A stretch of DNA of 4,971 nt. Source: a virus (lineage: Duplodnaviria; Heunggongvirae; Uroviricota; Caudoviricetes). The translations under genes and the position numbers were made by a program. The stretch's first letter is position 1. Each line of letters starts with the position of its first letter. The stretch lies in the IMG/VR virus record IMGVR_UViG_2698536476_000014. The stretch is one strand, 5' to 3'. Below the pieces are notes generated by a model. The model was given only the letters and a program-made list of their open reading frames with translations, searched no databases and was not told the origin of the DNA. Shown in pieces: positions 724 through 888 of this stretch.

Positions 724-888
724 CTAGATTTTAAAGTATTTATCTTTTAGAGATGTAGATGTAAAACTTTTCGCCTTTGAAAATTTTTTGTCATCAGAAG
801 GGCTTATGAACTCATCTTTTTTGTAGGGAACCGCTAATGCTGCATCACGTCTGCGAGGCAGCTTGCTTACTTCCTCGCGCTTTTTCAT
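724..888 (-). CDS. Possible small basic protein (54 aa, MKKREEVSKLPRRRDAALAVPYKKDEFISPSDDKKFSKAKSFTSTSLKDKYFKI), last gene of the kinase operon
   Basis: ATG (886-888) lies 2 nt after the kinase stop, with AAGGA 9 nt upstream. The stop abuts the terminator hairpin. It is absent from the ORF track, presumably because of a length cutoff. No homolog recognised. Confidence 0.3.
   Translation of the reverse strand: MKKREEVSKLPRRRDAALAVPYKKDEFISPSDDKKFSKAKSFTSTSLKDKYFKI

Follow-up and report, generated by a model that had tools for sequence, protein, structure and literature searches.

A conserved small basic protein gene is the last cistron of a cassette with the Stk kinase gene in 933W-type Shiga-toxin prophages

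Abortive infection encoded by a prophage has a textbook example in the Stk kinase of phage 933W; catalogues list kinase defences as one-gene systems. In passages of PMC3564112 and PMC3681748 that cite Friedman 2011 (Mol Microbiol 82:567), stk of 933W is co-transcribed with cI and encodes a tyrosine kinase with little activity in uninfected cells. The same passages (PMC3681748 and PMC3564112, citing Friedman 2011) describe its activation on infection by HK97, which aborts the infection and excludes HK97. Stk2 of Staphylococcus epidermidis is a further kinase defence, as summarized in a passage of PMC9122126 that cites Depardieu 2016. The small protein described here may offer a way into two questions, namely what keeps Stk inactive in lysogens and which phosphorylation targets it needs to halt the cell. 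Growth-arresting kinases encoded beside a small controlling protein are known from HipA/HipB and HipT/HipS. The Friedman account of HK97 exclusion is said to be framed in terms of stk alone.

The window, meaning the whole stretch of DNA that was analysed (4,971 nt; IMG/VR record IMGVR_UViG_2698536476_000014), is the immunity region of a 933W-type Shiga-toxin prophage. Its kinase is 100% identical to stk of 933W-type phages, and positions 600-1000 have matches of at least 99% in 39 deposited phage genomes, including Stx2 phage I and phi345. The features used below are as follows.

2862..3569, minus strand: cI-type repressor gene (LexA/S24 family; annotated in 933W-type phages), heading the lysogen-expressed operon.
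2460..2801, minus strand: DUF3024 gene (Pfam DUF3024; PADLOC PDC-S43, E 4e-41), between cI and the cassette in the same operon.
1931..2392, minus strand: gene for a 153-aa RuvC-fold protein (PHROG 3875; AlphaFold; Foldseek), first cistron of the cassette.
891..1937, minus strand: stk, encoding a 348-aa Hanks-type protein kinase (Pfam Pkinase, E 2e-46; PHROG 2361; annotated stk in phage records), second cistron.
898..902, minus strand: Shine-Dalgarno sequence AAGGA, inside the last kinase codons, 9 nt before the next ATG.
724..888, minus strand: gene for a 54-aa small basic protein (933W L0081; WP_000745483.1; PHROG 4063), third cistron.
704..725, minus strand: intrinsic terminator from a terminator scan, ending the cI-stk operon at the position of lambda tIMM.
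Plus strand of the window: cro, cII and the start of O, from the ORF listing.

Several other elements were noted in the window. A 15-nt perfect direct repeat, CCAAACGTCTCTTCA, lies on either side of the DUF3024 gene at 2444-2458 and 2815-2829; it looks like a linker for cargo insertion or exchange behind cI, and the copy after cI falls in a junction that is also common to Salmonella prophages. The DUF3024 gene is missing from cassettes in other contexts and is outside the conserved three-gene set; the PADLOC model it matches, PDC-S43, is a candidate defence model. A 56-nt IS3-family terminal sequence is present in inverted orientation (98% complementary) at 1-56 and 4812-4867, with the IS body running to 4971. 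The IS insertions shorten N to 60 codons and interrupt O. Because they cut these genes at both window ends, the cI-stk operon sits in a crippled, IS-bracketed prophage fragment. Among the complete Escherichia coli genomes listed, one IS insertion or the other was seen, never both in one place. The right-hand IS sits directly behind the last of a series of tandem, partly palindromic repeats of ~19-20 nt (TCCCTCAAAACGAGGGA and variants) at 4690-4812 within O, which are presumably origin iterons. A strong terminator-like hairpin (4259-4286, minus strand) lies within the 3′ end of cII and a promoter-like site (4340-4368, minus strand) just within O, the same layout as that of the lambda oop antisense RNA.

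The kinase gene ends with TGA at 893-891, followed on the minus strand by TC and by the ATG of the small ORF at 888-886, so that the junction reads AAG GAT AAC TGA TC ATG. The AAGGA is supplied by the last Lys-Asp codons of the kinase. The small ORF has 54 codons and a TAG stop at 726-724. The first-pass annotation had placed its ATG 2 nt after the kinase stop behind a Shine-Dalgarno-like AAGGA, and the end of the frame at the base of the terminator hairpin. The sequence check on the minus strand agrees with both statements: the last two bases of the stop codon (AG) are the first two of the stem. The product, described there as lysine/arginine-rich, indeed contains 12 Lys and 4 Arg, with 5 Asp and 3 Glu as its 8 acidic residues, and has a net charge of +8 and a pI of 10.0. 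GC content is 0.38 in the small ORF, 0.35 in stk and 0.45 in cI; its base composition agrees with that of the cassette.

The ORF had also been called unlisted. This is correct for the ORF track supplied with the window alone, and a 60-aa ORF cut-off would exclude a 54-aa frame; it does not hold for public records, where the existence of the ORF is already documented. It is 100% identical to 933W L0081 (GenBank AF125520) and to ORF-62c of Stx2 phage I, is called by PGAP as WP_000745483.1 (RefSeq), and matches phrog_4063 (E 2.5e-39, residues 1-54 of 54), a family labelled "unknown function". All existing annotations say "hypothetical", and searchable literature contains no mention of L0081 or WP_000745483. 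The ORF is present in 223 of 5426 complete E. coli genomes. A 96%-identical DNA variant occurs in 30 of these, and the entries for the four that were listed name only the kinase. In one of these four, NZ_CP080085.1, an intact 54-codon copy 3′ of the kinase (L128 4073-4237; protein 93% identical) sits in a different E. coli prophage type with an XRE-type repressor and has no PGAP annotation. Annotation of the gene is therefore uneven: PGAP calls the 933W-type copies and omits this intact one, and ORF tracks with a 60-aa floor overlook the gene.

In isolation the small ORF is only slightly unexpected (its body stays open in 2% of mononucleotide shuffles); the comparative evidence is decisive. 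A protein search of 5.8 billion proteins returned homologues in Serratia fonticola (85% identity), Salmonella (69-72%) and Pragia fontium (54%). An exhaustive profile search over 1.84 billion cluster representatives added eight at 36-52% identity; with 11 clusters in total among that many representatives, the family is small. The frame is kept in 18 protein clusters of 36-96% identity, and the indels among compared copies (+3, +3, -9 and -12 nt) are all multiples of three. Nei-Gojobori dN/dS is 0.15-0.33 in diverged pairs. Within the invariant motif, only synonymous changes separate the Pragia copy from the window sequence, such as CGT to AGG for one Arg. Variable columns at codon positions 1, 2 and 3 number 25, 20 and 35, and each of the five other frames contains 1-7 stops in every homologue. 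The check proposed in the first-pass annotation, conservation of the frame in homologous cassettes, returned no frameshifts or stops in about 20 homologues, except for three singleton metagenome variants with changed C-termini that may be assembly or insertion artefacts. With Rfam models run across the entire window, nothing matched at 700-900 (E <= 1), and an RNA-gene reading was rejected. With a conserved frame under purifying selection, the earlier proposal of a genuine small basic protein gene beside the kinase is upheld; on these comparisons the 54-codon frame is judged a real protein-coding gene, its coding status settled short of direct peptide detection.

The cassette consists of the RuvC-fold gene, stk, the small basic protein gene and the terminator, in that order, and the small gene is its third and last cistron. 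In the general layout, an ORF of 145-175 aa overlaps or abuts a Pkinase gene of 345-349 aa (by 7 nt at the kinase start in the window), the small ORF begins 2 nt beyond the end of the kinase gene, with a GC hairpin and T-run behind it. The same gene order was found at every contig-placed homologue, with three exceptions. The 2-nt gap is present in the window and at loci L003, L005, L009, L053-L064 and L103-L109. The surroundings vary. In 933W the cassette follows cI, in Pragia it is close to an integrase and tail genes, and in Serratia it adjoins thrS-infC; other copies come after a Rac-type repressor or an S24 repressor, border SSB and a DUF927 primase, or neighbour tail genes. A distant RuvC-fold and kinase pair (RuvC-fold protein 42% identical; L127 1-5297) lies directly downstream of Wadjet JetC/JetD on a contig that ends inside the kinase, a typical defence-island setting.

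Kinase-based scans of viral contigs and representative genomes gave loci at 39-67% kinase identity. The scan of representative genomes with the kinase alignment returned one Bacteroidota locus (metagenome-assembled genome L065); a scan of representative genomes with the small-protein alignment found nothing. An ORF of 50-64 codons lies -7 to +10 nt from the kinase stop in all 17 intact Stk-like loci inspected (L065 and L110-L123 among them). A hairpin with a T-run follows it in most of these 17, and a RuvC-fold gene is upstream of the kinase in 16. Using the family HMM, the downstream ORFs of L111-L114 rank 1-4 among the 448 small ORFs of those loci (E 0.004-0.24). The most distant ORFs (L115-L123 and L065) gave E >= 2 with an iterated HMM, and hhalign of the most distant counterparts gave P = 0.007, in register over residues 1-24 only. 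The small ORFs of L115-L123 and L065 are positional counterparts only, with homology not demonstrable by sequence. Over 16 lineages, pairwise identity of the small protein tracks that of the kinase (Spearman 0.82) and that of the RuvC-fold protein (0.82), so that the three genes are passed on as one unit. Evolution is fastest in the small protein, at identities of 85, 78, 70 and 54% where the kinase has 86, 87, 81 and 55%. Strict synteny with the kinase supports the earlier suggestion that the small protein is an accessory factor.

Stk matches the PADLOC kinase models mad6 and PD-T4-6 (E 1e-37 for PD-T4-6), and its nearest solved relatives are eukaryotic kinases. The RuvC-fold protein was modelled with AlphaFold at pLDDT 92 and pTM 0.88, and Foldseek aligned the model to Thermus thermophilus RuvC (4ld0) with a TM score of 0.80. 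The family includes at least 75 protein clusters across Enterobacterales. Arg7, in an LG(V/I)R motif, is invariant in 30 homologues at the place where RuvC has LGID with the first catalytic Asp, an active-site equivalence read from sequence rather than from superposition. Glu68, Glu82, Glu87 and Glu140 are invariant in the same 30. The protein may be a DNA-binding module, possibly for junctions, rather than a canonical resolvase. In the HK97 record (L126 2176-2781) the gene order is Gp40, erf, an 83-aa "recombinase" and kil, which is Gp43. By gene numbering in the HK97 record only, gp41, the trigger of Stk, would be the Erf-like single-strand annealing protein.

Thirteen sequences of the small protein (36-85% identity) share invariant Met1, Arg13, Arg14, Ala19, Tyr22 and Lys50, and Ala16, Pro21, Phe42, Leu47 and Tyr51 are at least 90% conserved in the same set. 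These residues fall in an N-terminal motif, PRRRDAALAxPY(T/K), and a C-terminal motif, KF.S..L..KYFK[ILM], joined by a variable mixed-charge linker. The P-Y pair is kept in L111-L113 (ATPYG) and L115 (RRATPYD) and becomes P-S or P-K farther out; the positional counterparts that are most remote have Ser or Lys in place of Tyr22. AlphaFold gave pLDDT 71 and pTM 0.22, with short helices at 13-18, 24-27, 30-44 and 47-51 and the highest confidence over residues 11-20. No match was found in Pfam, NCBIfam or PADLOC, and profile comparison with the PDB returned nothing but chance matches to designed TIM barrels. The model has the profile of a largely unstructured peptide that would fold on a partner rather than as an autonomous domain. 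The earlier suggestion of a nucleic-acid binder gained nothing beyond net charge, as there is no family or fold match and no stable AlphaFold fold. A type II antitoxin identity is not supported, with no antitoxin or DNA-binding domain in Pfam, NCBIfam or PADLOC and no PDB relative. Mimicry of the trigger was also rejected, since neither the Erf-like protein of HK97 nor the 83-aa protein next to it resembles the small protein.

The RRRDAAL segment was compared with pseudosubstrates of protein kinase A (PKA). In PKA, Glu170 and Glu127 bind Arg and form acidic pockets for the RRxA-hydrophobic motif. Read from an alignment against textbook PKA residues, the corresponding positions of Stk are occupied by Asn, within the KPNN catalytic loop, and by Ser, within NGS after the hinge. 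A PKI- or PKA-R-like pseudosubstrate role for RRxDAA is a weak lead that the kinase does not back, since Stk appears to be without the acidic pocket residues.

The terminator scan placed the site on the minus strand at 725..704, as AGCCCGGC-CUCAGC-GCCGGGUU followed by UUCUUUG. The stem has 8 GC-rich base pairs and is followed by UUUUCUUU; the fold is -14.5 kcal/mol (z = -2.9 against shuffles). In most homologous loci a GC hairpin and T-run come within about 40 nt after the small ORF, with unrelated stem sequences. Over window positions 651-726, which take in the terminator and ~70 nt past it, many lambdoid phages whose cargo is unrelated show 83-95% identity, with about 90% across the terminator region. 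Phages sharing this flank include lambda, HK542, SfI and Sakai-type Stx phages, and the mosaic boundary coincides with the stop codon of the small ORF. Upstream, AAGGA is kept in the Enterobacterales cassettes, and its position inside the last kinase codons suggests translational coupling. A 19-nt inverted pair at 402-420 and 3909-3927 (95% complementary) contains CGCTGACAAAGCG as a boxB-like stem-loop; these sites are presumably nutL and nutR of the N system. With nutL at 402-420, pL/OL would lie between nutL and the terminator, at about 420-700, so that the small ORF would belong to the cI transcript rather than to the one from pL. Since the cassette rides on the cI operon in 933W-type prophages, its products should be made in lysogens.

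Copies without a kinase were also found. Salmonella lambdoid prophages carry the intact small ORF and terminator after cI, without the kinase or the RuvC-fold gene and with a different ribosome-binding site, GGAGG. Their DNA homology to cassettes sets in 0-5 nt before the ATG and runs to a point just beyond the terminator; with homology beginning this close to the ATG, no kinase remnants were found beside these stand-alone copies. A short post-cI junction and the terminator are common to the window and the kinase-less phages, and other lambdoid elements match those flanks only, with different cargo between. In a third kinase-less case (L062), behind a spanin gene, the first ~38 residues are replaced by an unrelated N-terminus. 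Comparisons with kinase-less copies gave dN/dS of 0.6-0.9 on few changes. The kinase-less copies may be leftovers of cargo exchange; rare as they are, those in Salmonella argue against strict kinase dependence.

Our preferred reading, which we hold to be somewhat probable, is that a real small gene with a basic, largely unstructured product is the last cistron of a mobile RuvC-fold/Stk/small-protein cassette, and that this product would be a bound partner of the kinase. Because the gene starts 2 nt past the kinase stop and has its ribosome-binding site in the last kinase codons, the small protein is probably made by ribosomes leaving the kinase message, and it would then be produced in fixed proportion to Stk. 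It would associate physically with Stk as partner, regulator or substrate. As a brake, it would hold Stk inactive in lysogens until displaced by the HK97 trigger. As a phospho-acceptor or adaptor, it would be the protein through which activated Stk acts, with Tyr22 of PRRRDAALAxPY as a candidate site. Both sub-models fit the data, and any role of the small protein in exclusion is one that we infer.

Other explanations were weighed against this kinase-partner reading. It is barely credible that the frame is open without encoding a functional protein, through DNA or RNA constraint (3′ UTR, terminator context or recombination boundary) or by chance in AT-rich DNA. The ORF is short enough for a few shuffles to stay open, it adjoins a mosaic boundary common to lambdoid phages, and its 96%-identical variant is left unannotated by PGAP. 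Against this, changes in the conserved motifs are mostly synonymous, indels are in-frame only, dN/dS in diverged pairs is low, and Rfam has no match. Protein motifs are also kept at 36-54% identity though the terminator sequences are unrelated, and a Shine-Dalgarno sequence precedes every Enterobacterales copy, including those in new contexts. These comparative data already largely refute it. A small basic protein that acts autonomously at the 3′ end of cargo cassettes, for example as a nucleic-acid binder or lysogen accessory, and does not need the kinase is unlikely. Salmonella copies stand alone and intact after cI with their own GGAGG, cassette homology starts no more than 5 nt from the start codon, PRRRDAALAVPY and SLKDKYFKL are unchanged in kinase-less copies, and the product has a pI of 10 and a net charge of +8. 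However, the searches turned up just three lineages without a kinase and more than 15 linked to one, and such an ORF lies beside every Stk-like kinase inspected, where the unvarying junction (2 nt or overlapping) speaks for coupled expression. The higher dN/dS in kinase-less copies and the lack of a match to any nucleic-acid-binding fold or family also count against autonomy.

The small protein could instead partner the RuvC-fold protein, as a basic cofactor for branched-DNA binding with the kinase as output, which we regard as decidedly unlikely. The RuvC-fold gene accompanies the small gene as constantly as the kinase does, with equal co-divergence, and a confident RuvC fold with Arg for the first catalytic Asp suggests binding rather than cutting. 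An Erf-like annealing function of gp41, if gene numbering is a guide, would fit a trigger in the form of a recombination intermediate. The small ORF is, however, coupled to the 3′ end of the kinase gene and not to the RuvC-fold gene, and the active-site equivalence comes from sequence comparison and not from superposition.

A broader version of the kinase-partner reading is a long shot: Stk-type kinases would belong to a machine of three components, widespread from Enterobacterales to Bacteroidota, in which the catalytically altered RuvC-fold protein senses a phage recombination product, the kinase is the switch, and the ~55-residue basic peptide is the brake or the phosphorylated executioner (through Tyr22). 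The Salmonella stand-alone copies would then be decoys that blunt the kinase of a rival prophage. At the least, an Stk-type kinase may not act alone. The small protein at the kinase tail, with its invariant tyrosine, and the RuvC-fold protein at the kinase head offer handles on how Stk is silenced and what it targets.

The 933W Stk abortive-infection system is the same locus as the window. In the portions of the literature available, that system is described as the kinase alone, whereas in the present comparison the kinase is constantly accompanied by L0081 and the RuvC-fold gene; neither gene is mentioned in searchable papers. Stk2 and PD-T4-6, like Stk, are Hanks-type kinases acting as anti-phage abortive-infection effectors. 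They are filed as one-gene systems, while the Stk clade has a fixed three-gene architecture, and its small trailing protein matches no PADLOC model. The rexA-rexB-tIMM region of lambda has the same slot and logic, with exclusion genes on the repressor transcript and a terminator just before OL/pL; RexA and RexB have no sequence relation to the window cargo and form a different system. HipA/HipB and HipT/HipS may share a concept with Stk and L0081 by analogy. HipA and HipT are HipA-fold kinases whose antitoxin is usually encoded upstream and binds DNA, whereas Stk is a Hanks-type kinase, and no homology was found. No description of Stk as part of a fixed three-gene cassette with a conserved small last member was found in searchable literature. 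The kind of system is already known, as kinase-based abortive infection; what appears to be new here is the fixed three-gene cassette around Stk.
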